A stretch of 64,000 nt of DNA from Poseidonia sp. (lineage in GTDB: Archaea > Thermoplasmatota > Poseidoniia > Poseidoniales > Poseidoniaceae). Every line of letters starts with the position of its first letter. Positions within the stretch are counted from its first letter, which is position 1. A program made the translations under genes and the position numbers. Positions 2,448 to 15,328 of this stretch are shown here, piece after piece. The notes under the pieces are model-generated. The model had not been told where the DNA came from. It ran no database searches and saw only the letters and a list, made by a program, of their open reading frames with translations. The stretch spans positions 352,001 to 416,000 of the forward strand of contig CBFIDD010000002.1 in assembly GCA_965661285.1 (NCBI GenBank). Direction: 5' to 3'.

Positions 2448-2891
2448 TCAAAATGAGCACACGGTGAGGTATCGCTCCAAGCGATCCACCCGACGTTGCC
2501 CGTTTTCATCGACCTCGCTCATGGCTCGAATGGATTCCTCGATCAGTGCGTGCTGGTCTTCCTGAAGTCCAATGATTCGACGAAGATGGTCGAGCATCGC
2601 CCATTCATCTTCGCTGATGACATCGTCGTCGAGCGCAGCGATGAGTGCAGACTGATAGGTGGTGGCGTCACCCATGTGATGACCACCGTATTCACTGCCC
2701 TCATCAAACGGCCAATCGACTTCACCCGCCACAACCGCTCGGCACTCCGCCGTATCTGCTGGCGCCACGCCGAGAGCTCCGGCGAGAATCCTGAGAATTT
2801 GGGCCTCATCATCCGTCACGATGGCGTCTTCAAAGGCCACTCGGAGTGTTTCAAGGTAGAGATAGAGACCCCGTGTGGGTTGCAGTGCCAT
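2448..2891 (-). CDS. Hypothetical protein with two internal TerB-like helical repeats
   Basis: YLETLRVAFEDAIVTDDEAQILRILAGALGV and YQSALIAALDDDVISEDEWAMLDHLRRIIGL, both with a DxxxxxxE pattern as in TerB-like domains. Confidence 0.65.
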   Translation of the reverse strand: MALQPTRGLYLYLETLRVAFEDAIVTDDEAQILRILAGALGVAPADTAECRAVVAGEVDWPFDEGSEYGGHHMGDATTYQSALIAALDDDVISEDEWAMLDHLRRIIGLQEDQHALIEESIRAMSEVDENGQRRVDRLERYLTVCSF

Positions 2892-2955
2892 GAATTCACG
2901 TGGAGCAGACTCGTCTTTCAAACTTCTCACCTTGCATCAAGGGTGCGAGGAGAAG

Positions 2956-3007
2956 TTTGTCATACAGGTAAATACAATTTGTCATCATTTAGAATACAAT
3001 TATATAC
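2956..3007 (+). promoter_or_regulatory. 22-bp-period direct repeat (putative operator) abutting the TATA box of the RHH gene
   Basis: TTTGTCAT-N7-AATACAA at 2956-2977 and 2978-2999, followed directly by TTATATAC at 3000-3007. Confidence 0.6.
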
Positions 3008-3042
3008 GGCTTGGTTCAGTCATGAATTACGAGGCCACCAAG

Positions 3043-3414
3043 ATGACCCAGCCAACCAGCGCCGTTTCCCTCCGAATCACGGAGGAAGATCTCGCCCTGC
3101 TGGACGCCCGCATTGGCATGGACGGCGCACGAAGTCGTTCGGACGTGGTGCGTTTGGCCATTCAGGAATTCCTTCACAACCAACCGCTCCTGCACGACAT
3201 GAAGTCCGTTCGTATCCCACTTGGTCGAAACGACCAGGTTCAACTTGGGAAATTGTACGAACTTCAAGGCACAACGCCCGAAATTGCAGCCCAAGAGGGG
3301 TTGAAATTGTACATTGACCAAGCCATTGACAAGATTGTCAACGGCATCAAACTCGATGATGCACTGGAGGCGTCCAGAGCAGCAACGATTCGACGCAACG
3401 AATACCAAGAATGA
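3043..3414 (+). CDS. Ribbon-helix-helix (CopG/CdrS-like) regulator with two RHH-like units
   Basis: SAVSLRITEEDLALLD...SRSDVVRLAIQEFL is a canonical RHH; a second unit KSVRIPLGRND...AAQEGLKLYI follows. Start chosen from TATA spacing. Confidence 0.8.
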   Translation: MTQPTSAVSLRITEEDLALLDARIGMDGARSRSDVVRLAIQEFLHNQPLLHDMKSVRIPLGRNDQVQLGKLYELQGTTPEIAAQEGLKLYIDQAIDKIVNGIKLDDALEASRAATIRRNEYQE

Positions 3415-3458
3415 ATTGGTGAGAGACTGGAGGGGATGGGATGAATTGGCAAAACTCG

Positions 3459-3711
3459 GGCTACAACCTTGGTGATGCCACCCTTGGAGTTGTGCAGGAC
3501 CGGCCTGTCCTGCAGAGCTTTGTCTCGTTGTGTCAGCGTGCCCGTCGTGCGCGCCTTGGCCTTGGTTCCCACAACCAAACAACCCCACACACCTCCCTGG
3601 ACGACGGCCAGGGAGACCCTGATTCCACTCCCGTCAGTTGACGCGGTGGTTCCCCGTGCCCAGCCCCCACACTTCTGGGCACATTGATTCCAGACAGTCA
3701 AGCCTGTAACC
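3459..3711 (-). ncRNA. Candidate structured non-coding RNA (strand uncertain; minus favoured)
   Basis: 12/13-bp closing stem, three perfect 8-bp hairpins, three smaller hairpins and complementary 7-nt loops (see findings). Confidence 0.5.
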
Positions 3712-3744
3712 TCCATGCGAATCCTTTAGGAGGGTCGCCGCAGG

Positions 3745-5865
3745 ATGCTTGATATGAACGAGCAGGAAGAACAGGTGGACGCATCCACCTATCCATTTCT
3801 TGCTCATGCCAATCCCCGACCTGGTCAACTAGAAATGATACAAGACGGCATCAAAGCGCTCCAAAACGGAGGCTACCATCTGGCAGCGGCGCCAACAGGT
3901 ATCGGAAAAACCGCTGCTTCGTTGGCCGCGGCCCTCGAAGTGGCCAGTCAACAACCGCAGAAGAAAACCGTGTTTTTCCTCACCTCCCGCCAAACACAGC
4001 ACCGCATCGTTGTGGATACCGTTCGCCGTATCAACCAGCGAAGAAAGGGCACGATGCCCGTTCGATTGGTCGACATGGTCGGTCAAGCCGGCATGTGCGT
4101 CCAACCCTTCGCCAAAGAATCCCCGTTGGTGTTCTCCCTCCTGTGCAGCCAAGCCAGAAAAACACGTTCGTGCAAGCCGTGGATCACATCGGCACCCGGG
4201 CTGAAGGAGCGAATATTGGCCTCGCCCCTTCATGTTGACGAACTGGTCGACATCGCCCGAACACACACGGCCAACGGCGAGCCTGCCCAAACCTGCCCGT
4301 GGAAAGCGGCTCGAGAAGCCGTGAGCGGCGCTGATGTCTTTGTTGGCGATTACAATCACCTCTTTGATGACGGTGTTCGGGAATCCAGCCTCAAAGCGAT
4401 GGACCTTGACCTCAGCGACATCATCATCGTCGTTGATGAAGCACACAATCTCCCGGACCGTATCCGAATGACGCTGGAGAAACGACTGACAAGAACCATG
4501 ATTCGAAATTCCCAGATGGAATTGGAGGAATACGCCGGCATGCTCGCACAAGCCATGAATGCTCCTGGAGGTGAAGCGCTCTCAATGGCGCACGGTCTTG
4601 CTTCTTGGGCGTTTGAGGTGATCAAAGCCTCACGTGTCGGATTCGATGCGCTTTTTTCCCAGTACCTACGAAACCTCTCGGGTCAAGACGAAGAGGCTGA
4701 GGTGAGCGTGGACGAGGTACTCAATGTCTTTCACCGTGCGTGCGATAGGGTGGAAGGGAAGGCTGGACAACAGCAACTCAACGCCCCGACCTCGTCCAAA
4801 CATCCGGTTGTCGACGTGGCCGTACGCATCCACCAACTTCGAGATGTTTTGGCAAGCGTTGACGTGGATATGGAGGCCGGTGATGACGGCAACCCGATGG
4901 AGCCCAATGCCCACAGGGTTGCCGAGATTCTCGATTGCATGGTGAAATACGGTTCAACCCCAGCCCTGACCATGATTTACGACACCAAAGGGAAAGACGG
5001 GCGAATCACCACCCACCTCCTCGACCCCGGTTTGGTCTCAAAGCCCGTCTTCGAACAGTCAGCAGGAGCCATGCTGATGTCTGGCACACTCTATCCACCC
5101 AGCATGTACGCCAACATCTTGGCCCTCCCGAGTTCCTCTACCACGTCGGTTGCCTACCGGTCACCTTTCGCCGCCATGCGAAGACCGGTGCTCGTTGCGA
5201 AGAACGTGACGACAAAGTACACCGAGCGTGGGCCCGAAAACACCCGGGCCATTCGAGCACACATTCAATCCCTCATCGATGCTTCACCCGGCAACGTGGC
5301 CGTGTTTGCCCCCTCTTACGCGATGCTCAACGATGTCGTTCTTGAAGGGCATTTTACGGGGGCACGCATCATGGCCGAAAGCAGAGAATGGACCAAACAA
5401 GATTTGGACCAGGTGGTTGACACGTTGCTTGAGGAAAAGCGGAGCGGAAGAAAGATTCTCCTCGCTGGCGTATTTGGTGCTCGGCTCTCAGAAGGCGTGG
5501 ACTACCACAGCGGAGCTCTTGACGCCGTGGCGTGTATTGGCATCCCAAACTCACCACCCTCTGTTCTCTCCAAGGCGCTGAAAACCTACGCAGAAGACCG
5601 TTTCGGACGAAATTTGGCCTGGCGATACACGGTGTCGCAGCCGGCTGTGAACGCCATCCTGCAAGCCATGGGCCGTCCCATCCGCTCCATTGGTGACCGC
5701 GCCCTGATTCTGCTGTTGGACCGCCGCGTTACCGACCGAACCTATGCCGGGTGTTTCCCGTCGGACTTACGTATGAACGATGCAAGCGACCATGACTCAA
5801 CACGCCATTTCGCTCGACGCTTTTTCACAAAAGTTCACCCGGACCGCTCGCTGGAAAGCGAATGA
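3745..5865 (+). CDS. XPD/Rad3/DinG-family FeS DNA helicase
   Basis: Q motif RPGQ, Walker A APTGIGKT, four FeS Cys (GMC, LLC, RSC, TCPW), DEAH, SGTL, SEGVD, QAMGRPIR. Confidence 0.93.
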   Translation: MLDMNEQEEQVDASTYPFLAHANPRPGQLEMIQDGIKALQNGGYHLAAAPTGIGKTAASLAAALEVASQQPQKKTVFFLTSRQTQHRIVVDTVRRINQRRKGTMPVRLVDMVGQAGMCVQPFAKESPLVFSLLCSQARKTRSCKPWITSAPGLKERILASPLHVDELVDIARTHTANGEPAQTCPWKAAREAVSGADVFVGDYNHLFDDGVRESSLKAMDLDLSDIIIVVDEAHNLPDRIRMTLEKRLTRTMIRNSQMELEEYAGMLAQAMNAPGGEALSMAHGLASWAFEVIKASRVGFDALFSQYLRNLSGQDEEAEVSVDEVLNVFHRACDRVEGKAGQQQLNAPTSSKHPVVDVAVRIHQLRDVLASVDVDMEAGDDGNPMEPNAHRVAEILDCMVKYGSTPALTMIYDTKGKDGRITTHLLDPGLVSKPVFEQSAGAMLMSGTLYPPSMYANILALPSSSTTSVAYRSPFAAMRRPVLVAKNVTTKYTERGPENTRAIRAHIQSLIDASPGNVAVFAPSYAMLNDVVLEGHFTGARIMAESREWTKQDLDQVVDTLLEEKRSGRKILLAGVFGARLSEGVDYHSGALDAVACIGIPNSPPSVLSKALKTYAEDRFGRNLAWRYTVSQPAVNAILQAMGRPIRSIGDRALILLLDRRVTDRTYAGCFPSDLRMNDASDHDSTRHFARRFFTKVHPDRSLESE

Positions 5866-6377
5866 TGTCTGTCCGAAGGTTCATGTGGGCTCGTCCGTTG
5901 CAAAAGCCCATGGACAATTGGCAACCGCTGGACATCACCACTGAGGATACGCCCTCCACGCCCCTTGAACCGGCCATTGATGGCCTCGAAACCGACGCTG
6001 CAAACCTCCAAGCAGCCTTTGAAACATCGAGTTCACATCTTGATGAAGTCCGAGCCCGCCACACCGAGGTGCTCGTCACCGCCGGTATGCTTCCCGAAAC
6101 GGGATTGGCCGACCGCCACCCTGAGCGAGCCTTGGCTTGGATTGTTGAAAGCATCAACGGCCGCATGAACCCGGACGGCCTCACCGTACCGCTGCTGGGA
6201 ACGACCGAGGAAGCCATTCGACTTCATGTGAAGAATACCGAAGACGCCACGCTGGTGAAGTTGGACATTCACGACCCGAACGGACCGCCCTTGCTCCGTG
6301 AACTCCCGCTGCCTGTTGAAGCCAGCGAAACGCTTCAAGCCACCTTTGTTGAGGGCAGGCTCCACCTTCGTTGGTGA
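5862..6377 (+). CDS. Hypothetical protein, possibly with a divergent alpha-crystallin/HSP20-like C-terminus
   Basis: ATGA overlap with the helicase stop; C-terminal RELPLP...QATFVEGRLHL resembles the RxxxLP...AxYxNGxLxI motif. Confidence 0.55.
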   Translation: MMSVRRFMWARPLQKPMDNWQPLDITTEDTPSTPLEPAIDGLETDAANLQAAFETSSSHLDEVRARHTEVLVTAGMLPETGLADRHPERALAWIVESINGRMNPDGLTVPLLGTTEEAIRLHVKNTEDATLVKLDIHDPNGPPLLRELPLPVEASETLQATFVEGRLHLRW

Positions 6378-6394: not shown

Positions 6395-9300
6395 TCACCG
6401 CTGCGGGATGGCTTGCATTTGAGCGATTTCACCGCTCATTCGCGTCAGTGCTTGGACAGCGACCTCTTGGTGTTGAGGGCCCATCTCTTCTCGACTGTAC
6501 CGGGCCATCTCAAACGTGTTGTCGAGGGCGGTCAGAGCATCCTCTGACACGCCCTGCAGCGCTTGGCGGATGGCGAATTCGAATTCCCGAACGGTTTCGA
6601 AGTCACGTCGGAGGAAGCCACGCTGCTGCAGCAGACCGCAGAGGTCCTGATAGCAGGTGAAGATGGCTTCTCGTGTTGCATCCCCGGCCGCCAACAACTC
6701 GGCGGTGTAAGCGAAGACCTCGGCCGCATCCTTGAGCAGGTCGTCGGCGAGTTGCTTTCGTCGGTACATCACGACGCCACCGGCGATGAGCGCGGCGAGC
6801 GCAAGCACGAGGAGGTAGGACCACCACGGTGTTTCCGCTTGTTCTTCTGCAAATTCGTATTGCACAGCAAAGCCTTCACTTCGCAGTGATTCAAAGCCCT
6901 GAAGGCTTTGGGCTGAAAGGCGAGGATCGTTCACGATGATATCCATGGTCAACTGGCCCCAAACATCAGCATCGCCGTATGGCGGGTCAGCATCGAACAC
7001 AAAGGTGGCTTTCCCGGTTTCATCGGTTTGAGCACCACGGTTGGCGAGTTGGGATTGGTTGGCATCGTAGAGATAAATGACAACATCAATCCCCGGCAAG
7101 CCCGTACCCGTATCTTCGGCGATAACGGTGAGGGAACCGCCCACGTCTTCTTGTTCGTCCTCAACCACCTCGAGGAGGTCTACGGTGATGACGGCGTCGA
7201 CCTGTACAAACACCGTTTGACTGATGCTGGCAGCGTTGAGGTAAAGGGAATCGTTTCGAGCGACGTCAAGGAAGAAATACTGCGAACCGACTTCGAGCCA
7301 ATACGGCGCCGTTGCGGTCAGCGAGAAGTTTCCGTTTGACCACACGACGCTGCTCTCTGTGAAGCAGCGTGCTCCTTCCCGACCACCCTCACAATCCGAA
7401 CCGTTCCCAATGCTCAGCAGGAGGTTCTCAAAGACCTCACCTGAGCCTCCGATCTCCTGCACAGAACCCGAATAGAAGACGGGTTCAAACACACTATCAG
7501 AGCGGGTGACGACGTTCGTGTTTGAAGTTGGGTCGACTTGAATCAACAGGTCAGCCCATACCCGAACACTGCTTTCTACGTCGGCTGGAAGATGCGCCTG
7601 CGTCCCTCCAAAGACCACGCCGATGGTGTGTTCGCCCCGGGACAAGTCCATGGTTGCAGGCACCGTTGCGCTCCACGCACCATCAGCACCGGTGGTGGTC
7701 GTGAAGAGCGTGTTTCCGTCGAGTTGGACGAGCAATTCGAATCCGACCAAACCGTCGCGGTCAACGGTGTCGAAGTCGTACAGGCGGCCACTCAATTCCC
7801 ATGTGTCGCCACGGGTGGCATCAATACCATCGTCGAACACCAAGGTGACCCATGAACGATGGGAGAGGAAGAACGAGACGTTTCCTTCCCCGGCACGGTA
7901 ATATCCTTGTGGGGGTGATTCTGCGAACAAGGTTCTGTTCCCGAAGTCAAAGATGTCGGGAACGACCCAGTCATAGGTGAACGCACCGTTTTGGTCGGTG
8001 GTCAAGGTGGAGATGACGATGCCTTCCACGACCAGTTGAACTTCGTGGTTTGCAACGCCCACGAGTTGATTGTCAACCACCGAACCGGTGATGGTCACGG
8101 TTTGGTTCACCGCCACCGGCGAGGAAATATCCACCGTTACGAGGACTGGACTGAAGATTTCCCACAAACCACTGGCGTTGCTGGGGAGGTAAGCCACGGT
8201 CCCGGTGAATCGGGTTTCCAGAACCACTGGACCAAGCGGAGCGTCTGCGGGCACAGGATGGACCGCAGAAAACTCGCCAAGTTCGTCCGTCGTCGTGTTG
8301 GTCAGCCACTGACCACCCAGCCATACCTCGATGGTCAGGTTCGGTAGCGGGTTGTCAACCACATCGAGAAGACGGCCTTGGATGGTGATCGTTGTTTCTC
8401 GGTCGGCATCGCCTGTTGCGGTCAACAGGAGAATCTTCGTGGGTACGCTAACGTTGAATTCCACCATCGCAGAGCTGGGTTGGTAGTATTCGGGATTGTT
8501 GGTGTCCCCGTAGCCGACAGGGTCAACCCATTCACGACCACCACGGAACTCCACCGAGATTTGGTGGGGACCTGCAGCCGTGTCTTCTGGGAGCGCGTAC
8601 GAAAGGGTGTATGCACCCGAGATGTTGTCCGTTTCAATGCTGGCAACGGGAACGCCATCGATGAGAAGGTGCACCACGGCAGTGGAAGGTACACCGTTTC
8701 GTTGCAAGACCAAGCCCAGGTCGTCCAACAGCGTGCCGTTCACGACCAACATGTCGCCAGCCACCAGCACCGTTGGTGCTTCGGTGATGGTAACCTCGGT
8801 CGCACCGAGGACGACAAAGGACGAACTGGCGTTGGTTCCAATGATGCCCGTGGTGCCGGCGATTCCGGTGTAGTCCGCATGGATGCCGGTCGGGCCGACG
8901 CTCATGTTGGCTGGGACGGTCAGGTTGCCCCAAGCAGAACCGTTGGAAGCCGTCAAGACCGTGATTTGGACGGGTGAAGCATCGTTCAGCGTCGCCGTGA
9001 GCGAGACGAGGACGCTTTGATTAGCCAGCGGGAGGCCTTGGTTGTCCCGGAGGAGAATCGAGAACTCAACGATGTCTCCCCTTTCGGTTCGGTCGTTCAA
9101 CGAGGGTTGACCGATACCGTCAAGTGCGGGGAGAATGAAATTCATGACCGAGAACCCACGAGAATCGAACGAGGTGTTGTTGGTCGAGCCAACGTAATAG
9201 TTGACACTCGGGATGTAGGTGGCTTCCATCACGTGGCTACCAGCGGCGAAGGTTTCACTGAGGCGAATCGTGGCGTTCCAATACCCATCAGCACCGACGG

Positions 9301-12300
9301 CACCGCCTGTGGCGGTGAAGCCAGTCGGTTGGCCGTCAATGGAGAACAACACGTTGGCGTTCGCCAAGACGGAGTTGTCCCGCTCAACCAGTCCCGAGCC
9401 GTTGTCGGAGGTGATTTGCCCGCTGATGTTGAAGGAGGTTCCTGCAACGGGGTTGGCTGCGATGCTGTCAACGACCATGAAAGTCAACGAGCGCACGGTG
9501 ATGCTGGTCAGGTTGGCGCTGGTTGAAAGGAGGTCGGTGGAACCGTTGAACACCATCTGAACCACGATGAGGCCCAGAGGATGGTCATAGGGCACGTTGT
9601 AGGTGAAGTTGGCAAACCCTTCTCCGTCCGTGGTTTGTGGCAGGAGCCATGTTTCGTGGAATTGCAGCGCCACCTCGTAATTCGAGAGAGGAGTAAACAA
9701 GTCTGAGGCTTCGACAAGTTGCGCTGACATGTTGATGTCGTTTCCACGGTTGATGACCACGGCATTCAACGGCTGGAGGTTCTCGAGGCGAGAGACGCCC
9801 ATGACCTGGATGGGCGATTGCGCCGTGGCGGTGAGATAGAACGGCGAGGACTCGTTGACGACGGTGACCACCAGCGTGTGCGGGCCACGGGTCGTACCGT
9901 TGCCGGCCGTGTCGGTTGGCACGGTCATGTTGAAACTCCCGTTGTTGGTTGTGGCGTAGTTGCTCAAGAGCAACTCTTCGGGGTTTTCTAGCCAGAACAC
10001 GTTCAGCCTGACGGCGGAAATGAGTGGACGGGTTGCGTTCTCAGCGTCTTCAACCTGCCCGACGACGTTGAACGGGACGCCTGCCGTTACCGTACTTGGC
10101 ACAGAGATGAGCGAGATATCGCTGGTGACTTGCACGGTCACGTTGATCACAGTCAAATTACCGTAGCGGCGCGAGTTACCTTCACTAAGAGCTGCTGTGA
10201 GGTCGTCCTGAACAACGATGCCGACGTCGTAGAACCCGGGTGCAATGCCCGACGGTGTGAAGTCGAACGTGGAGTTTCCTTCGCCGTTTGAGACCACCGT
10301 TCCAAGGCTTTGGTTTGACTTACCGTAATCCCAGACATAGTCAACGCTTGCTCCGCTGATGTTGGAGTTGTCCGCAATGTCGGTGATCTTCGCCGTGAAT
10401 GAAACCGTGTTGTTCATCTCCACGATGTAGGATGAGCGTTCGGCCTCCACCACAACCTCGGTGATGATCCCACCCAGCGTGGATATTTGTGCTGGGGGTG
10501 CAGGGGGGACGGACGTATCCACAAAGGCGTAGTATGCGCCGCCCGCAGGCGCTTGACTGACGAAGTCAAAGTCAAGAATGAATTCATAAGCGTCTGAACG
10601 GAGGTTCATCGGCATCCTGATAGGGATATCAAAGGCACCTGTGCTGTTGTTCAAGGTTGATTGCGCGATGTCGATGGGCCCTTGTTCGGTGAACAGGCTG
10701 ACACTGATGAGCGTGGTGTTGTTGAGGACCGGCGTGAGATAGACCGCATCAAAAACATCGCCGACAAGTCGGGTCGAGTTGCCCATGAATGTCCAATCCT
10801 GCCCGATGGAAAGATTCCATCCGATGTTGGCCATGACACGTAGGGAACCGAGTCCAATTGAGGGTTGGTAAAACGATGAACCGTTGAAGGAGATGCCGAT
10901 GGGGTAGTCGCCCGAGCGTAGGTTGGCATCGAGAGGGATCACAATTTCCAACACATCGGTTTCCGGATCCACGGTGGTGTTGAACCACGACCCATTGAAG
11001 GTGAAATCGTAATTGCCGAAGATTTCAACGCCGGCGCCCACGCCCCGATGGTCGTTGATCTGCACACTGACAAAAGCATCCTGTCCACGCACCTGTGATG
11101 ACTCCTGGACCTCAAACGTCAGCAAGCCTCGGAGGAAGTACGGGGGGTCGACCGTCAAGTTAGCGTCGTCCGTTGCTGGCAGCGTTGAGGGGAAGAAACG
11201 CAATCGCGTCTCGATAGCGCCGGCTGCTACACCAACGTTGGTTGGCATGGGATACTGAACGGTGAAATTCCCGGTGACACTTTGATTGAACAACTCCACC
11301 CAAACATTTCCGGAATCCAAGGCCCGAATGGCAAACTGTAGGTTCCCTGTCAGAGCCGTTGGCGTTGGGCCGAGGGACAGGGCACTTCCGTTCACCCAAA
11401 CGTCATCACCGAGGAGGAAAACGCTCCTGTTGCTGGTCAGAGGACCTTCGATGGTGGCCGTTAGATTTGGGGCCTCGGTGACGTTGAAGGTAATTGAGGT
11501 CGTGGTCGGGTTGAGATGGAAGAGAGCGGGTGTTGAACCTGGAACGGAGGCATCTTGCCAGCCTGAGAATCCAAGGGTCGCCGATAACGGACCGAGCGTC
11601 TCGGCCTCGCTCAAGTTGATCGAGATGCTCCAGGAGCCACTGATGTCGGTTTGTGCAGTGAGATTTTGCGCTCCGTCAACTGAAGAAGTGTACGACAGCC
11701 ACACGGTTTGATTTGGCAGATTGGAGATTTCATCAATCGGTTCATTCGCCAGAGCCAAGCGGCCCTCGAGAACGGTTGTGGCGCCCGCGCCGACAACCGG
11801 GGTGTTGATGGCCAAGGGTGCGGTGTGGACGATGGTGGTGTTCTCGGTCAAATTGACGTAGCCTTCGAAAATAACGCCATCATGCGAAACATAACCGGAT
11901 TGACGGTGTTCGATGACGATGTTGTGCATACCGGGTGCACTGGGTGCGTCGGGGAAGCCGATCATGCTGAAATTGCCGTTGGGGTCAGTGATGTTTTCCT
12001 CAAGCAGGAGTGAAAGGTCAGCGCCTGGACCAGGGACAAAGGGTGCATCACTTACGGGTGAGAGGTAAGCGAACACACGAATATTGGATGCCGGAGTGCC
12101 GTTGGCGGCATACCTCAACTGCCCTGACACCGAGATGCTCTCGGTACCGTCCCGAGCAACGGTGAACGTTGAGATGGTTTGGTTAACGACCTCGATCTCC
12201 TCAGCTGGTGGGCACGGGTCAAAGGCAATCCATCCGAGGTCGGTGTTTCCGTTGGCGCTGTTTTGCTGCAGTCGAACCTCCGACCACGTGGCGGCGTCCG

Positions 12301-15300
12301 AGGCGTAGACGGCATAACCTTCGCCTGTCCATGTGCCTCCGATGTAGCCCGTCACCTGACGAGCAGGAAGCCCAGCAAGACGAGCCATGGTCACGAAGGC
12401 CGTGTTAAACTCACGACACGAACCCTCTTTCACGGCTTCAACCACATTGAGGGTGACGTCCATCGGACTCATGGTTCCCGAACCGTTGAAGTTACGCTTG
12501 AACTCGGTCGTAGCATTGCCGTTGGTGAGGAAGTCTTCCAGGGCAAGCGCCGTATTGTAAGCATCCGTTGCCCCTGCTTCGGCAATGACAGCGGCCGTGA
12601 CGTTATTCACGTATGAGAAGGCCGAAGAAGAGTCGGTAAACTGAGGGTCGACAAGCAGCTCGTAAGGGAAGCCTTGACCGGGGACGGTCGTTGACGCCAA
12701 GTTTGCCCAATCAAAGTAATACTCAGGTTGTTCGTACAAGACCTGCTCTACAGAACCAGCAACCAGCGAGAGCATGTGCGTATCGTTCGACCTTGAGATG
12801 TTGGCTGAGGTTTCGAAGACGAATGAGATGTTGGAATAATATGCAGGAGCAGGGATTTGCCCTGTCGTTATGGGGCGGTTGAATTGAAGGTTCCACTGGA
12901 CGGTTGAGTTGGCAAGGGAAATCGGTGCGAGGTGAGTAAAGTTGCTCATGGGAACAACGACCGCCTCCGAGGGATGAACGCTGTCGAGGTGCGCGTAGGT
13001 GCTTCCGGTGTAGAAGTCATTGGTGATGGTGCGCCACCGATGGTCGCCGTTGAGATCGACGACTCCCGAGGTATTGTTTGCGAAAAAGACAACATCATCC
13101 GACATGATGTCATCGCTGGGGTCAAACACATCAAAGGGCGCGCCTATGCAATCAAAAACCCAAAATGCATCAGGACACTCATCACCGTCAAGCATCCCAC
13201 CACCGTCTGTATCGGGGTTGGTCCAGTCGGTTCCGGTTTGATTCTCAACGGCATCGGGCAATCCATCACCGTCAAAGTCGGCGGGTTGAATATCATCAGA
13301 AGGATCGTTTTGCGGGTTCGTTCCGTCAAAGTATTCACTGCGGTCATCCACGCCCCCCTGGTCGGTATCGAACGCGTTGGGAGCTGTCACCCAAACATCT
13401 TGGGAGCCGTTGGTGATGCCGATGTAAATCAAATCACAGCCAGTGGTGTTCTCAAAGTAGTTGTTGAGTCCGTCGGCGTCATCGTCCAAGAGATTTGAAC
13501 ACGGCTGATTGGGATCGGTGTTGTCCTGAACTTCGTCAAAGTCATTCACGCCGTCAGCATCGCTGTCGGCGATGCTGGGATTGGAGAACCATCCAAAGGT
13601 CCCGAGAAGTTCTTGCCAGTCTGCCAGACCATCACCGTCGGTGTCCTCGTAATCGTCGTCGCAATACTGCTGCGTTGTGCTGATTGTTCCTGAATTCGTG
13701 GCAGCCGTGTGGCAAAATGAACCGTTGCGATTTGCTACCTGGGTCGCCACGCCCGAGGGCCCGTTGGAAACACCCTGCAGAATGTTGGCAACCACAGTCG
13801 CGTAGGCAAAACTTTCCCATGTTCCGGATACGTTGTACCAACCAACGCCCCCTGCGGGGTTGAAACCCGAGCCGTTTCCTACTTCGACCCTGCTGGCGCT
13901 GAGTTCCTGCACGAAGGTGGTCTCAAAGTTCACAAGTGAATCGCAAGGATCCGTACCGTGGCTGATGTTTCGTTCCTGCCCGTCGTTGATGCCGCCAAAG
14001 TCCGTGTCGGCCACATTCCACAGCGTACACGTCAGGTTTTCCTCCCAGTTCTGTATGCCGTCCTGGTCTTCGTCTCCTGAATCCTCACGGCGTGTGGGGT
14101 CCGTCTCACCGGCATCCAACACACCGTTGAAGTTGGTGTCTTCCTCGCCGTCATCAAAAGCATCCCCGTCGGTGTTGTTGTTGCGCGGGTCGCTGGCTTG
14201 GGCAGGGTTGCCGTAAGCACCGTTCACCTCGATACCGTCGCTGATCCCGTCGCTGTCGGTGTCCGAAGACGTTGGATCGGTCAGCAACGTAAAGGCTTCG
14301 TACGAATCGTTCAACCCGTCGCCGTCGGTGTCTGCCCTCTGCGGATCTGTCGAGGTGATACCGTCAACCTCAGCGGTAAATGTGGCACAACCACCCGGTC
14401 CAATGCCTTGGACTGGGTCGCAGGGCGAGGTGGTCTCGGTGACGATGCCATCGGGGCCGTTGCGGAAACAGGGCGAAGAGCCGCACATGGTCGTCCATGT
14501 CGGGTTGACGTACTCGAGGAGGTTGTTCAGGCCATCACCGTCGGGGTCGCCGTTTGGACCGTCAGCGTTGGAGGGCGAGGTGGCGTTCAAGCCGTTAGCG
14601 GCTTCCCAACCGTCGGGCATGCCGTCGCCGTCGGTGTCCCAACCTGCGGGGTCTTCATCGATGACGCCGTCGCCATCATCGTCATCCGATAGACAATCGG
14701 CATCGCCGTCGTTATCCGAGTCCGCCGAGTCGACAAATCCGTCTTTATCATCATCAAATCCATTGGCGCAAATATTCCCGACGGGGTCCTCGTCGCAGAG
14801 GATGATCGAGCCCGTGCCGTCGGAACCTGCCGCACCGCATGCGGGTTGGTTGAACTGCATGGCGTCTTCCTCGTTCCAGTCGTTCACGGGAACGGTGCCG
14901 TTCCACCAAACACCGTTGTCCAGGACAGAAGCGGTGTTGGTGTTGTCCCAACCGCTGGGTTGGAGGTAGAGGTATTCTTGCAAATTGGACATGCCGTCGC
15001 CATCCGGGTCAGCGACTGCGCCATCGGCACCGGTGGACGACAACGGGTCGAGGCCGTACTTCCACTCCCAGCCATCGGGCAAGCCGTCGTTGTCCGAGTC
15101 GGGGTCGTTGGGTTGGGTGTTCATGAGGTACTCAAGGCCGTACGTGAGACCATCACCGTCCTGGTCGGATGCTGCTTGAACATCAACGACCGTGTACTGA
15201 ATGGAGGCGAGGGTGGAGAGGACCATCAAGAGGGTGAGTGAGAGCGACTTGAGCGCTTTTTTCCGCTCTGCGAGGGCTGGTCGAATCGCGGCCGCATTGG

Positions 15301-15328
15301 AATTCGAGCCTGTCAGCATGAGTCTCAC
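6395..15328 (-). CDS. Giant (2977 aa) surface protein: signal peptide, DxDGDG Ca-binding repeats, transglutaminase-like domain, Ig-like beta repeats, TM helix, DUF4129-like cytoplasmic domain
   Basis: Many DSDxDGLxDGxE repeats; GSCREF...ARLAGLPARQVTGY...WIAFDP; C-terminal TM, then FETVREF...LDNTFEMARYS. Confidence 0.9.
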   Translation of the reverse strand: MRLMLTGSNSNAAAIRPALAERKKALKSLSLTLLMVLSTLASIQYTVVDVQAASDQDGDGLTYGLEYLMNTQPNDPDSDNDGLPDGWEWKYGLDPLSSTGADGAVADPDGDGMSNLQEYLYLQPSGWDNTNTASVLDNGVWWNGTVPVNDWNEEDAMQFNQPACGAAGSDGTGSIILCDEDPVGNICANGFDDDKDGFVDSADSDNDGDADCLSDDDDGDGVIDEDPAGWDTDGDGMPDGWEAANGLNATSPSNADGPNGDPDGDGLNNLLEYVNPTWTTMCGSSPCFRNGPDGIVTETTSPCDPVQGIGPGGCATFTAEVDGITSTDPQRADTDGDGLNDSYEAFTLLTDPTSSDTDSDGISDGIEVNGAYGNPAQASDPRNNNTDGDAFDDGEEDTNFNGVLDAGETDPTRREDSGDEDQDGIQNWEENLTCTLWNVADTDFGGINDGQERNISHGTDPCDSLVNFETTFVQELSASRVEVGNGSGFNPAGGVGWYNVSGTWESFAYATVVANILQGVSNGPSGVATQVANRNGSFCHTAATNSGTISTTQQYCDDDYEDTDGDGLADWQELLGTFGWFSNPSIADSDADGVNDFDEVQDNTDPNQPCSNLLDDDADGLNNYFENTTGCDLIYIGITNGSQDVWVTAPNAFDTDQGGVDDRSEYFDGTNPQNDPSDDIQPADFDGDGLPDAVENQTGTDWTNPDTDGGGMLDGDECPDAFWVFDCIGAPFDVFDPSDDIMSDDVVFFANNTSGVVDLNGDHRWRTITNDFYTGSTYAHLDSVHPSEAVVVPMSNFTHLAPISLANSTVQWNLQFNRPITTGQIPAPAYYSNISFVFETSANISRSNDTHMLSLVAGSVEQVLYEQPEYYFDWANLASTTVPGQGFPYELLVDPQFTDSSSAFSYVNNVTAAVIAEAGATDAYNTALALEDFLTNGNATTEFKRNFNGSGTMSPMDVTLNVVEAVKEGSCREFNTAFVTMARLAGLPARQVTGYIGGTWTGEGYAVYASDAATWSEVRLQQNSANGNTDLGWIAFDPCPPAEEIEVVNQTISTFTVARDGTESISVSGQLRYAANGTPASNIRVFAYLSPVSDAPFVPGPGADLSLLLEENITDPNGNFSMIGFPDAPSAPGMHNIVIEHRQSGYVSHDGVIFEGYVNLTENTTIVHTAPLAINTPVVGAGATTVLEGRLALANEPIDEISNLPNQTVWLSYTSSVDGAQNLTAQTDISGSWSISINLSEAETLGPLSATLGFSGWQDASVPGSTPALFHLNPTTTSITFNVTEAPNLTATIEGPLTSNRSVFLLGDDVWVNGSALSLGPTPTALTGNLQFAIRALDSGNVWVELFNQSVTGNFTVQYPMPTNVGVAAGAIETRLRFFPSTLPATDDANLTVDPPYFLRGLLTFEVQESSQVRGQDAFVSVQINDHRGVGAGVEIFGNYDFTFNGSWFNTTVDPETDVLEIVIPLDANLRSGDYPIGISFNGSSFYQPSIGLGSLRVMANIGWNLSIGQDWTFMGNSTRLVGDVFDAVYLTPVLNNTTLISVSLFTEQGPIDIAQSTLNNSTGAFDIPIRMPMNLRSDAYEFILDFDFVSQAPAGGAYYAFVDTSVPPAPPAQISTLGGIITEVVVEAERSSYIVEMNNTVSFTAKITDIADNSNISGASVDYVWDYGKSNQSLGTVVSNGEGNSTFDFTPSGIAPGFYDVGIVVQDDLTAALSEGNSRRYGNLTVINVTVQVTSDISLISVPSTVTAGVPFNVVGQVEDAENATRPLISAVRLNVFWLENPEELLLSNYATTNNGSFNMTVPTDTAGNGTTRGPHTLVVTVVNESSPFYLTATAQSPIQVMGVSRLENLQPLNAVVINRGNDINMSAQLVEASDLFTPLSNYEVALQFHETWLLPQTTDGEGFANFTYNVPYDHPLGLIVVQMVFNGSTDLLSTSANLTSITVRSLTFMVVDSIAANPVAGTSFNISGQITSDNGSGLVERDNSVLANANVLFSIDGQPTGFTATGGAVGADGYWNATIRLSETFAAGSHVMEATYIPSVNYYVGSTNNTSFDSRGFSVMNFILPALDGIGQPSLNDRTERGDIVEFSILLRDNQGLPLANQSVLVSLTATLNDASPVQITVLTASNGSAWGNLTVPANMSVGPTGIHADYTGIAGTTGIIGTNASSSFVVLGATEVTITEAPTVLVAGDMLVVNGTLLDDLGLVLQRNGVPSTAVVHLLIDGVPVASIETDNISGAYTLSYALPEDTAAGPHQISVEFRGGREWVDPVGYGDTNNPEYYQPSSAMVEFNVSVPTKILLLTATGDADRETTITIQGRLLDVVDNPLPNLTIEVWLGGQWLTNTTTDELGEFSAVHPVPADAPLGPVVLETRFTGTVAYLPSNASGLWEIFSPVLVTVDISSPVAVNQTVTITGSVVDNQLVGVANHEVQLVVEGIVISTLTTDQNGAFTYDWVVPDIFDFGNRTLFAESPPQGYYRAGEGNVSFFLSHRSWVTLVFDDGIDATRGDTWELSGRLYDFDTVDRDGLVGFELLVQLDGNTLFTTTTGADGAWSATVPATMDLSRGEHTIGVVFGGTQAHLPADVESSVRVWADLLIQVDPTSNTNVVTRSDSVFEPVFYSGSVQEIGGSGEVFENLLLSIGNGSDCEGGREGARCFTESSVVWSNGNFSLTATAPYWLEVGSQYFFLDVARNDSLYLNAASISQTVFVQVDAVITVDLLEVVEDEQEDVGGSLTVIAEDTGTGLPGIDVVIYLYDANQSQLANRGAQTDETGKATFVFDADPPYGDADVWGQLTMDIIVNDPRLSAQSLQGFESLRSEGFAVQYEFAEEQAETPWWSYLLVLALAALIAGGVVMYRRKQLADDLLKDAAEVFAYTAELLAAGDATREAIFTCYQDLCGLLQQRGFLRRDFETVREFEFAIRQALQGVSEDALTALDNTFEMARYSREEMGPQHQEVAVQALTRMSGEIAQMQAIPQR

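Follow-up and report, generated by a model that had tools for sequence, protein, structure and literature searches.

The window considered here is a stretch of 64,000 nucleotides, part of contig C2 in the archaeal genome G000 (Poseidonia sp., family Poseidoniaceae; 1.98 Mb, 93% complete). Within it, positions 3459-3711 lie between an RHH/CopG-family gene and an XPD/Rad3-like helicase gene, both on the plus strand, and an earlier note made from the sequence alone had seen there a candidate novel non-coding RNA. Comparison with relatives points to a larger element at about 3415-3715, which is probably a translated and structured plus-strand second cistron of the RHH operon together with its 3' tail, the fold having a role in cis. 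Selection appears to act on one sequence both as a fold and as a code. The fold, which comprises five hairpins (H1-H5) and a 7-bp kissing contact of the H2 loop with the H3 loop, is under strong selection, judging from its covariation, and it overlaps a conserved small open reading frame (sORF) of 66 codons at 3441-3641.

With the 361-nt segment 3400-3760 as query, a first draw yielded matches in 34 of 36 other genomes of the same genus and in 0 of 24 genomes of other genera. In a family-wide draw, 122 of 200 other genomes were matched, including 42/42 of genus g1, 39/41 of g23, 33/37 of g15 and 2/2 of g19, and the remaining genera gave few or no matches. Retrieval of 60 further loci brought the total to 88 usable family loci from five genera. 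For the covariation analysis, 85 distinct sequences of five genera were aligned with MAFFT (alignment A1), and a separate L-INS-i alignment of 103 rows was used for an unbiased helix scan, in which all column pairs were compared and no model was supplied. The reading frame was compared among 106 homologs of eight genera, namely the 88 family loci and 18 more distant loci (genera g22, g14, g20 and divergent g23) obtained with a covariance model.

The order RHH, spacer, helicase is kept in 88/88 usable loci, with a spacer of 309-348 nt. Among 29 relatives of the genus, the conserved block extends over about 3370-3745 and is wider than 3459-3711; identity to the window is 0.84-0.94 over most of it and drops to about 0.75 at 3490-3519 and 3670-3699. 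Flanking coding sequence stays at lower values, mostly about 0.5-0.85. Conservation continues for about 75 nt past the sORF stop codon, into the region where H5 covaries. The parts of the fold are the following.

3493-3514 (3493-3500/3507-3514), plus strand: hairpin H1, perfect 8 bp here, of which 5-6 bp are conserved
3536-3554, plus strand: hairpin H2, 6 bp with the 7-nt loop CCGUCGU (3542-3548), one kissing partner
3562-3578, plus strand: hairpin H2b, variable, in the linker; 70.9% of cells paired, dispensable
3583-3590, plus strand: C-rich motif CCCCACAC, unpaired, first copy; CCCCAC or CCCAAC conserved in A1
3593-3615 (3593-3600/3608-3615), plus strand: hairpin H3, perfect 8 bp, loop ACGACGG (3601-3607), the other kissing partner
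3542-3548 x 3601-3607, plus strand: kissing loop-loop pseudoknot, 7 bp, exact complements CCGTCGT/ACGACGG, supported by covariation
3625-3649, plus strand: hairpin H4, enclosing the sORF stop codon at 3639-3641
3656-3682 (3656-3663/3675-3682), plus strand: hairpin H5, perfect 8 bp, in the 3' untranslated part, with the conserved C-rich loop CCCCCACAC

Direct reading of the sequence confirmed the three perfect 8-bp hairpins, the smaller hairpins, the complementary loops and the CCCCACAC repeats that the earlier note had described. A plus-strand model made up of H1-H5 and the loop-loop pair (46 pairs, 3904 cells in A1) was compared with controls in which the 3' partner was slid by 1-3 columns, and with 500 shuffles. 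Pairing was found in 85.8% of the model cells, against 36.6-45.5% after sliding. Changes on both sides occurred in 29 of the 46 pairs (7-14 slid) and double-change cells numbered 342 (19-68 slid), and not one of the 500 shuffles matched any of the observed measures. Compensatory changes thus go beyond the controls, as is expected of a conserved structured RNA. In the unbiased scan, the three strongest helices were H1, the kissing loop and H3, in that order. The check that the earlier note had proposed, covariation in the RHH-helicase spacers of relatives, came out in favor of H1, H3, the loop-loop pair and H5, with H2 nearly invariant.

In H1, double changes affect all 8 pairs, with 3497/3510 being AU in 41 sequences and GC in 38, and its arms are entirely different in genera g19 and g22 and in locus L090, with pairing retained. 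H3 is paired in 94.9% of cells, and two of its pairs are frequently exchanged (3598/3610, UA 46 and CG 39; 3594/3614, CG 60 and UA 24). The kissing pseudoknot, raised as a possibility in the earlier note, proved to be the best-kept helix of all, with 98.0% of cells paired. Five of its seven pairs covary in the 103-row scan; pair 3547/3602 occurs as four types (UA 30, AU 21, GU 15, GC 13), 3545/3604 as UA 73, CG 7 and UG 3, and 3544/3605 as GC 82 and AU 2. The inner four pairs of H2 are kept in 85/85 sequences, one of them being U-A in 75 and U-G in 10, and since this hairpin is almost invariant its covariation says little either way. H2b is absent, by deletion, from part of genus g23. Double changes were seen in 7 of the 9 pairs of H4, with 69-72% of cells paired on the MAFFT alignment, which has indels there. 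When examined sequence by sequence, 98 of 100 distinct sequences have an H5 hairpin of at least 5 bp around the C-rich loop, with 28 distinct stem sequences (for example GUGCCCAG/CUGGGCAC, GUGUUGCGCA/UGCGCAACAC and GCACCCGG/CCGGGUGC). The second copy of CCCCACAC, at 3665-3672, lies within this loop, and the C-rich motif is kept at unpaired places in nearly all homologs.

Two other features of the earlier proposal fared less well. The closing stem 3459-3471/3699-3711 is present in the window, with 10 Watson-Crick pairs and 2 minus-only G-U pairs, but it is not conserved: among 85 relatives, 47.7% of cells are paired on the plus strand and 55.4% on the minus strand, against 41% when slid by one column. 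Similarly, the switch hairpin CAGGG-AGA-CCCTG (3609-3621) exists, but all five of its pairs are found in 31/85 sequences only, with no double changes. RNAalifold, run on the MAFFT alignment, recovered H1-H3 and also proposed invariant long-range pairs without covariation, namely the Shine-Dalgarno (SD) site with CCUUU (3721-3727), and TACC with GGTG. The possible pairing 3431-3437 x 3721-3727 is 98.5% paired with no variation on either side, so that covariation speaks neither for nor against it. Pairing of the SD with the 5' arm of H3 (CCUCC) was rejected: A3431 is invariant while its partner 3594 switches between U and C. A role of the C-rich loops as general anti-SD sponges was also rejected, as GTGGG is not enriched upstream of start codons (ratio 1.00).

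The minus-strand preference of the earlier note was not borne out. In H3 and the kissing loop together, the non-Watson-Crick pairs are plus-strand G-U in 54 cases and A-C, which would be G-U on the minus strand, in 3; for H3 wobbles alone the counts are 31 and 0. An internal U-G in H5, found in 28 sequences, would be an A-C mismatch on the minus strand. The sORF, its SD and both flanking genes are also on the plus strand. Wobble counts for H1, H4 and H5 are mixed on MAFFT columns, which we attribute to misalignment and to a terminal G-U extension that favors the G/U-rich minus strand. The strand call rests on H3, the kissing loop and the internal H5 wobbles, and the MAFFT counts for H1, H4 and H5 were set aside.

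The label of a purely non-coding RNA had to be given up, because the 66-codon frame is conserved in 106/106 homologs with the signatures of a coding sequence. The frame and its upstream signals are listed below.

3418-3425, plus strand: invariant 5' motif GGTGAGAG, SD-like (GGUGA), 22-33 nt before the sORF start
3429-3437, plus strand: SD site GGAGGGGAT for the sORF, 8 of 9 positions matching the complement of the 16S 3' tail GAUCACCUCCU
3441-3641, plus strand: sORF, 66 codons (59-67 in relatives), predicted as one basic helix between disordered tails

The frame is open in 29/29 covering sequences of the genus (one of which ends at a contig end), in 88/88 family loci and in 18/18 distant loci. 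Its stop codon is TGA in 83 homologs, TAA in 15 and TAG in 8, always at one aligned site, and the other five frames of the same segment contain stops in 103, 96, 95, 55 and 93 of the 106 sequences. The distance from the 5' arm of H2 to the H3 loop, two landmarks chosen independently of the frame, takes seven values (52, 55, 61, 64, 67, 70 and 73 nt), all congruent modulo 3, in 84 of the 87 sequences matched; the other 3, at 110-144 nt, appear to be spurious pattern matches, and the patterns failed to match 19 of the 106 sequences. Untranslated spacers behave differently: that from the stop to a TATA-like word before the helicase gene (72-91 nt) has 15 distinct lengths, with modulo-3 residues 38/37/14, and that from the 5' motif to the ATG has 11 lengths, with residues 67/24/12. 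The 5' motif GGTGAGAG is invariant in 85/85 A1 rows and is found as GGYGAGAG in 103/103 rows, and GAGGGGAT ahead of the sORF is invariant in A1. Upstream of long ORFs in genome G000, SD words show an enrichment of about 3-fold. The sORF is most likely an SD-led internal gene that follows a first gene with a short or absent leader.

Among 89 distinct products, residues M1, L30, R33, A34 and A37 are invariant, and Leu30 remains so through synonymous codon changes. Variability is highest at the third codon position in paired columns (0.45, 0.73 and 0.97 bits for positions 1, 2 and 3) and in unpaired ones (1.08, 0.87 and 1.22 bits); over H2 this position is nearly invariant. The peptide carries the motif GFxxLRxRARxA in its basic helix, and AF2 with 89 relatives gave a single helix at residues 21-39 with the rest disordered (pLDDT 60.5, pTM 0.28). 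The 66-aa product belongs to no Pfam or NCBIfam family, and gene callers already list it as a hypothetical protein, in 28 database clusters without domains. An open frame, indels that keep the frame, a conserved start context and stop site, and a ratio of non-synonymous to synonymous divergence (dN/dS) below 1 are the features of a protein-coding gene, and on these evolutionary grounds we conclude that the frame 3441-3641 is translated. That the sORF and the RHH gene form a type II toxin-antitoxin pair was considered and rejected: the product has no toxin family in Pfam or NCBIfam (the PADLOC library was not searched), consists of one helix plus disorder, and is single-copy and syntenic across the order.

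The two constraints meet in the same nucleotides. For the same genome pairs, dS is 0.11-0.84 in the sORF, 0.36-1.82 in the RHH gene and 1.1 to saturated in the helicase gene, with dN similar in all three, so that synonymous sites of the sORF evolve 3-10 times more slowly than those of the flanking genes and do not have the rate of an ordinary neighbor. Because dS is low and dN similar, dN/dS reaches 0.22-0.80 in the sORF, against 0.03-0.24 in the neighbors. Over H1 the peptide varies while the helix is kept (VQDRPVLQ, MMTTSGIS, DIAMPGSI, DEIRSGFV). Codons 53 (L/P) and 57 (Q/R), in SLDDGQG and PPDDGRG, each contain one nucleotide of the covarying H3 pair 3598/3610, and these amino acids covary because of the RNA helix. 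The earlier note had stated that an ORF conserved at 3441-3641, with synonymous-site bias and no compensatory changes, would refute a structured RNA. The ORF is indeed conserved, but its synonymous sites are constrained and compensatory changes are abundant. Taken together, constrained synonymous sites, compensatory changes and a conserved frame indicate that fold and frame are both under selection, and both are very probably real.

The element does not belong to a known RNA family. No Rfam 15 family was matched over 3300-3900, where a search at E values up to 10 gave nothing but a chance match to a long non-coding RNA in the helicase gene (E 3.8). At the gathering score, the whole window contained only small-subunit ribosomal RNA and one tRNA, and five divergent homologs had zero matches at E up to 1. 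The archaeal RNase P RNA (RF00373) and SRP RNA (RF01857), multi-hairpin RNAs of about 300 nt like the element, were rejected as identities, in agreement with the earlier note: both are encoded at other sites of the same genome (G000:C2:268790-269086, 227.6 bits, and G000:C2:63789-64095, 128.1 bits, respectively), and their models miss the element, with no match over 3300-3900. Judged from listings and abstracts, searches combining Poseidoniales or Marine Group II with RNA terms yielded no paper on such an element, nor did the literature searches turn up a regulatory RNA described from Marine Group IIa archaea (Poseidoniaceae). The view of the earlier note that this is an undescribed conserved structured RNA is borne out in that respect. 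Folding energy, which it had also proposed as a check, was unremarkable: the z-scores for 3459-3711 are -2.05 on the minus strand and -2.81 on the plus strand, and for 3415-3715 on the plus strand -1.77, against -2.10 for a 301-nt control from the RHH coding region. Single-sequence z-scores were discarded as evidence, because the element could not be told from the coding control.

A covariance model of positions 3530-3651 (R1; H2, H2b, H3 and H4, 122 positions, 29 pairs) gave exactly one match in 69 of 74 other Poseidoniaceae genomes (g1 20/20, g23 23/24, g22 10/10, g15 10/10, g14 4/5, g19 1/1, g20 1/2, g13 0/2) and none in 76 genomes of the two other families of the order; the scanned genomes are samples, many of them incomplete. 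In the large sister family (f3), 39 of 41 genomes have the RHH protein, and 10 loci (L178-L187) were inspected downstream of the RHH gene. All 10 have a plus-strand sORF in that place, followed by the helicase in 9; in the remaining locus (L179) the contig ends before the helicase position. Nine of the 10 sORFs share the start context GATGGGATG and the 5' motif GG(T/C)GAG(A/G)G 22-34 nt upstream, and the other one starts further upstream. Their products have 35-88 aa and share the GFxxLRxRARxA region (hhalign E 5.3e-05, probability 67%, 16 columns). The RNA of the sister family forms different GC-rich hairpins, including additional ones ahead of the helicase, and no Rfam match was found over the hairpins of these 10 loci. 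A hairpin right after the start codon, of the GCGGGGGGG...CCCCUCCGC types with several UUCG or GAAA loops, changes on both arms between loci as read by eye. The cassette is kept in the sister family with a different fold, which indicates that the cassette is order-wide and the fold described here family-specific. A tRNA gene adjoins the RHH gene in sister loci L180 (1186-1269) and L182 (2249-2332); there is none at that place in the window.

The genes on either side of the element and the intervening block upstream of the helicase are as follows.

3022-3414, plus strand: RHH (CopG-family) regulator gene, PF01402 RHH_1 (E 6.7e-06), probable first cistron of the transcript
3720-3737, plus strand: invariant block AATCCTTTAGGAGGGTCG (AATCCTTTAGRRGGGTCG), putative BRE/TATA promoter of the helicase, outside the RNA fold
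3754-5865, plus strand: XPD/Rad3-like helicase, PF13307 and PF06733; TIGR00604 rad3 at E 2.8e-50, under its cut-off

The start of the RHH gene may be ATG 3043 rather than ATG 3022, since TTATATA lies upstream at 3000-3006 and Met8 is nearly invariant (alignment A4); this start would give a short leader, with GAGG at 3031-3034. Divergent from the RHH gene is a 160-aa ORF (2448-2930, minus strand) with a sub-threshold TerB match (E 0.0039, 17.9 bits, cut-off 24.4). For the helicase, ATG 3754 is conserved in nearly all A1 rows, and the in-frame ATG 3745 is confined to part of genus g1. The spacing from TTTAG to ATG 3754 is constant and gap-free in A1 while the bases between diverge, the TATA-like center lies about 27 nt upstream of that ATG, and most genera in A1 have no SD before it. 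Pieces of the motif (CCTTT, ATCCT, GAATC, AAAGG, AAGGG) are 1.9-2.9-fold enriched at -34 to -24 of the ATGs of long ORFs in G000; a direct position test for CCTTTA and CTTTAG was weak (6 of 80 CTTTAG at -31 to -29). We infer that block 3720-3737 is the helicase's own promoter and that its mRNA is leaderless. In G000 generally, A+T content upstream of long-ORF ATGs peaks at -33, -29/-28 and -26/-25, and the words enriched at -34 to -24 include AAAGG, AAGGG, TTCAA, CCTTT and GAATC, a pattern that would fit many leaderless mRNAs with a TATA region followed by G-rich bases.

The N-terminal 200 residues of the helicase (window 3745-4344) are about 65-94% identical to those of the window in most relatives at the same slot. 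Identity there is only 39-48% in a minority scattered among the relatives, three species of the same genus among them (loci L010, L011, L015, L034, L037, L047, L055, L060, L066, L068, L070, L090 and L091), with the upstream RNA and sORF unchanged, as if two helicase lineages had replaced one another at this locus. A 171-aa ORF (5862-6377, plus strand), without NCBIfam family, overlaps the stop codon of the helicase gene and probably belongs to the same transcript, and a minus-strand ORF of 2977 codons (6395-15328) lies directly downstream of the helicase operon.

Part of the stretch is contained in 24 public runs, 15 of them recorded as RNA, and four RNA runs were compared with it in the form of assembled contigs. 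About 3375-3604 is covered by three contigs of 206-220 nt, which come from relatives in three studies, and one contig of 746 nt spans the end of the RHH gene into the helicase gene. The element is present in RNA libraries; the contigs carry no strand, ends or expression level, and the absence of a contig from a given part has no meaning.

As for how the cistron might work, the SD and AUG presumably lie in a less structured 5' part. A ribosome on the ORF would have to open H1 and H2, then the kissing complex and H3, and also part of H4, so that the RNA presumably alternates between a compact folded state and a translated one. In such a scheme, the fold would set the yield of the small basic-helix protein (GFxxLRxRARxA) and the lifetime of the RHH-sORF transcript, and it may also present its C-rich loops to a partner. 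The protein would probably act with the RHH regulator or the neighboring XPD-like helicase, the latter being read from its own promoter at 3720-3737 as a leaderless mRNA starting near 3754. This is close to the fallback of the earlier note, the 3' part of the RHH transcript, which fits best. Several points weigh against it. The regulatory action of the fold in cis, on translation or decay, is itself deduced, and co-transcription with the RHH gene is assumed, because an SD is present and no TATA-like word lies upstream; no promoter or terminator was identified for the element. The RNA data consist of assembled contigs only and are silent on strand, transcript ends and translation. On the side of the RNA, the single-sequence folding z-score is ordinary, indels lower the H4 and H5 helix counts on the MAFFT alignment, and the wobble counts of these two hairpins on that alignment do not favor the plus strand. 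On the side of the peptide, the low pLDDT and pTM and a dN/dS of up to 0.8 are poorly protein-like, recognition of the 66-aa product in the protein atlas was low, with nothing usable, and the function of the peptide itself is uncertain because the RNA dictates much of its sequence.

Other explanations differ mainly in what is made of the RNA. It is conceivable, although we consider it doubtful, that the fold has a function of its own as RNA, as a compact riboregulator or ribonucleoprotein scaffold that is built on the loop-loop pseudoknot, displays CCCCAC loops and would be switched between messenger and structured states by sORF translation; it might act together with the RHH protein, the XPD-like helicase or the arginine-rich peptide that it encodes. 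If true, one of the most abundant archaeal lineages in surface seawater would have a bifunctional RNA throughout the family, and the sister family a counterpart with another fold. Slightly less likely again is a discrete dual-function RNA that acts in trans, comparable to the bacterial RNAIII, SgrS or SR1. It would be about 300 nt long, arise from the RHH operon by processing or by internal transcription, and bind other RNAs or a protein through its compact fold or its exposed C-rich loops (CCCCAC, 3583-3590 and H5), with the sORF as a separate function. Conservation of the unpaired C-rich motif in nearly all homologs would suit such an RNA, and so would a tertiary contact conserved at 98%, seemingly beyond the needs of mRNA stability. 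The restriction of the short metatranscriptome contigs to about 3375-3604 is a weak hint at most, and small RNAs (sRNAs) that encode small proteins are reported in archaea, namely in Methanosarcina mazei. On the other hand, the ratio of 1.00 for the loop-complementary GTGGG upstream of starts, from one crude test and the sole target search, does not point to trans targets, no promoter or terminator of its own was seen, and a single copy in one syntenic slot suits a cis element equally. An ordinary small-protein gene, with hairpins that are mRNA stabilizers or by-products of GC-rich codons, would account for the strong ORF signatures, the order-wide peptide motif and the existing annotation as a hypothetical protein (28 clusters). 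It is unlikely, since by-products would not covary, whereas double changes occur in 29 of the 46 pairs and one long-range loop-loop pair exists in four types; moreover, the synonymous sites are 3-10 times slower than in both neighbors, conservation goes on for about 75 nt beyond the stop, where H5 covaries, and amino acids at structured codons change freely with pairing retained.

At the opposite extreme, a pure non-coding RNA with a frame left open by chance or composition is very improbable. A mostly disordered peptide unlike known proteins, and a within-genus constraint that is near-equal across codon positions (0.081, 0.083 and 0.14), would be compatible with it. Chance would hardly keep the frame open in 106/106 homologs of eight genera while each of the other five frames carries stops in 55-103 homologs, exchange TGA, TAA and TAG at one site, hold seven linker lengths congruent modulo 3, which untranslated spacers do not do, place an invariant SD at the correct distance, and swap synonymous codons at an invariant Leu. 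Just as improbable is a leader-peptide or translational-coupling device for the helicase, by analogy with repY/repZ. In the IncB/IncI-alpha repY/repZ system, a pseudoknot can form once the leader ORF is translated, and this makes the downstream ribosome site accessible. An order of repressor-like RHH gene, pseudoknotted small ORF and large gene that is fixed across the order recalls this arrangement, and the invariant possible pairing 3431-3437 x 3721-3727 (98.5%) could serve it. A leader of this kind ends at or overlaps the regulated ribosome site, whereas the sORF stop is separated from the helicase ATG by about 110 nt, and the spacer occurs in all modulo-3 residues. Most genera have no helicase SD, and the fixed 27-nt spacing from the TATA-like word points to a promoter of its own; the 3431-3437 x 3721-3727 pairing is without covariation, both sides being invariant, and the kissing loop lies inside the ORF, away from the helicase start. 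The reading as a translated, structured second cistron of the RHH operon is the one that we favor.

Marine Group IIa archaea (Poseidoniaceae) are abundant and uncultured, and the locus offers a richly covarying RNA family in them, with about 100 distinct sequences, a tertiary contact and an overlapping conserved frame. It represents a natural case for the question of how one sequence meets the constraints of an RNA fold and of a protein together. It is also a warning for annotation, as gene callers report a hypothetical protein, RNA scans miss the element, and codon-based tests alone would misjudge it. The conserved cassette of RHH gene, small ORF and XPD helicase across Poseidoniales may bear on the regulation of DNA repair.

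Several known systems share part of this architecture. Control of repZ/repA in IncI-alpha/IncB plasmids likewise involves a large gene preceded by a repressor gene, a small translated ORF and an RNA pseudoknot. In contrast, the stop of the sORF neither overlaps nor adjoins the helicase start, the pseudoknot is internal to the ORF, and transcription of the helicase gene seems to start from a separate promoter. The hok mRNA of type I toxin-antitoxin systems is similar in that a small ORF sits in a covarying fold that plausibly gates translation. The hok product is a membrane toxin, however, whereas the peptide considered here is hydrophilic, basic and disordered; a gene for an antisense RNA was not seen at the element, which is single-copy and syntenic, not mobile.

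Dual-function RNAs, such as RNAIII/hld, SgrS/SgrT, SR1/SR1P and the sRNAs reported from M. mazei, resemble the element in that one transcript combines a conserved structure with a small ORF. The C-rich unpaired loops of the element also recall loops of the RNAIII type. The element has no sequence or Rfam relation to these bacterial and M. mazei RNAs. They are free-standing genes that act in trans, whereas the element is the second cistron of a conserved operon and a role in trans is putative only. Finally, in dual-function RNAs the structure lies beside the ORF, while in the element it overlies the ORF itself.

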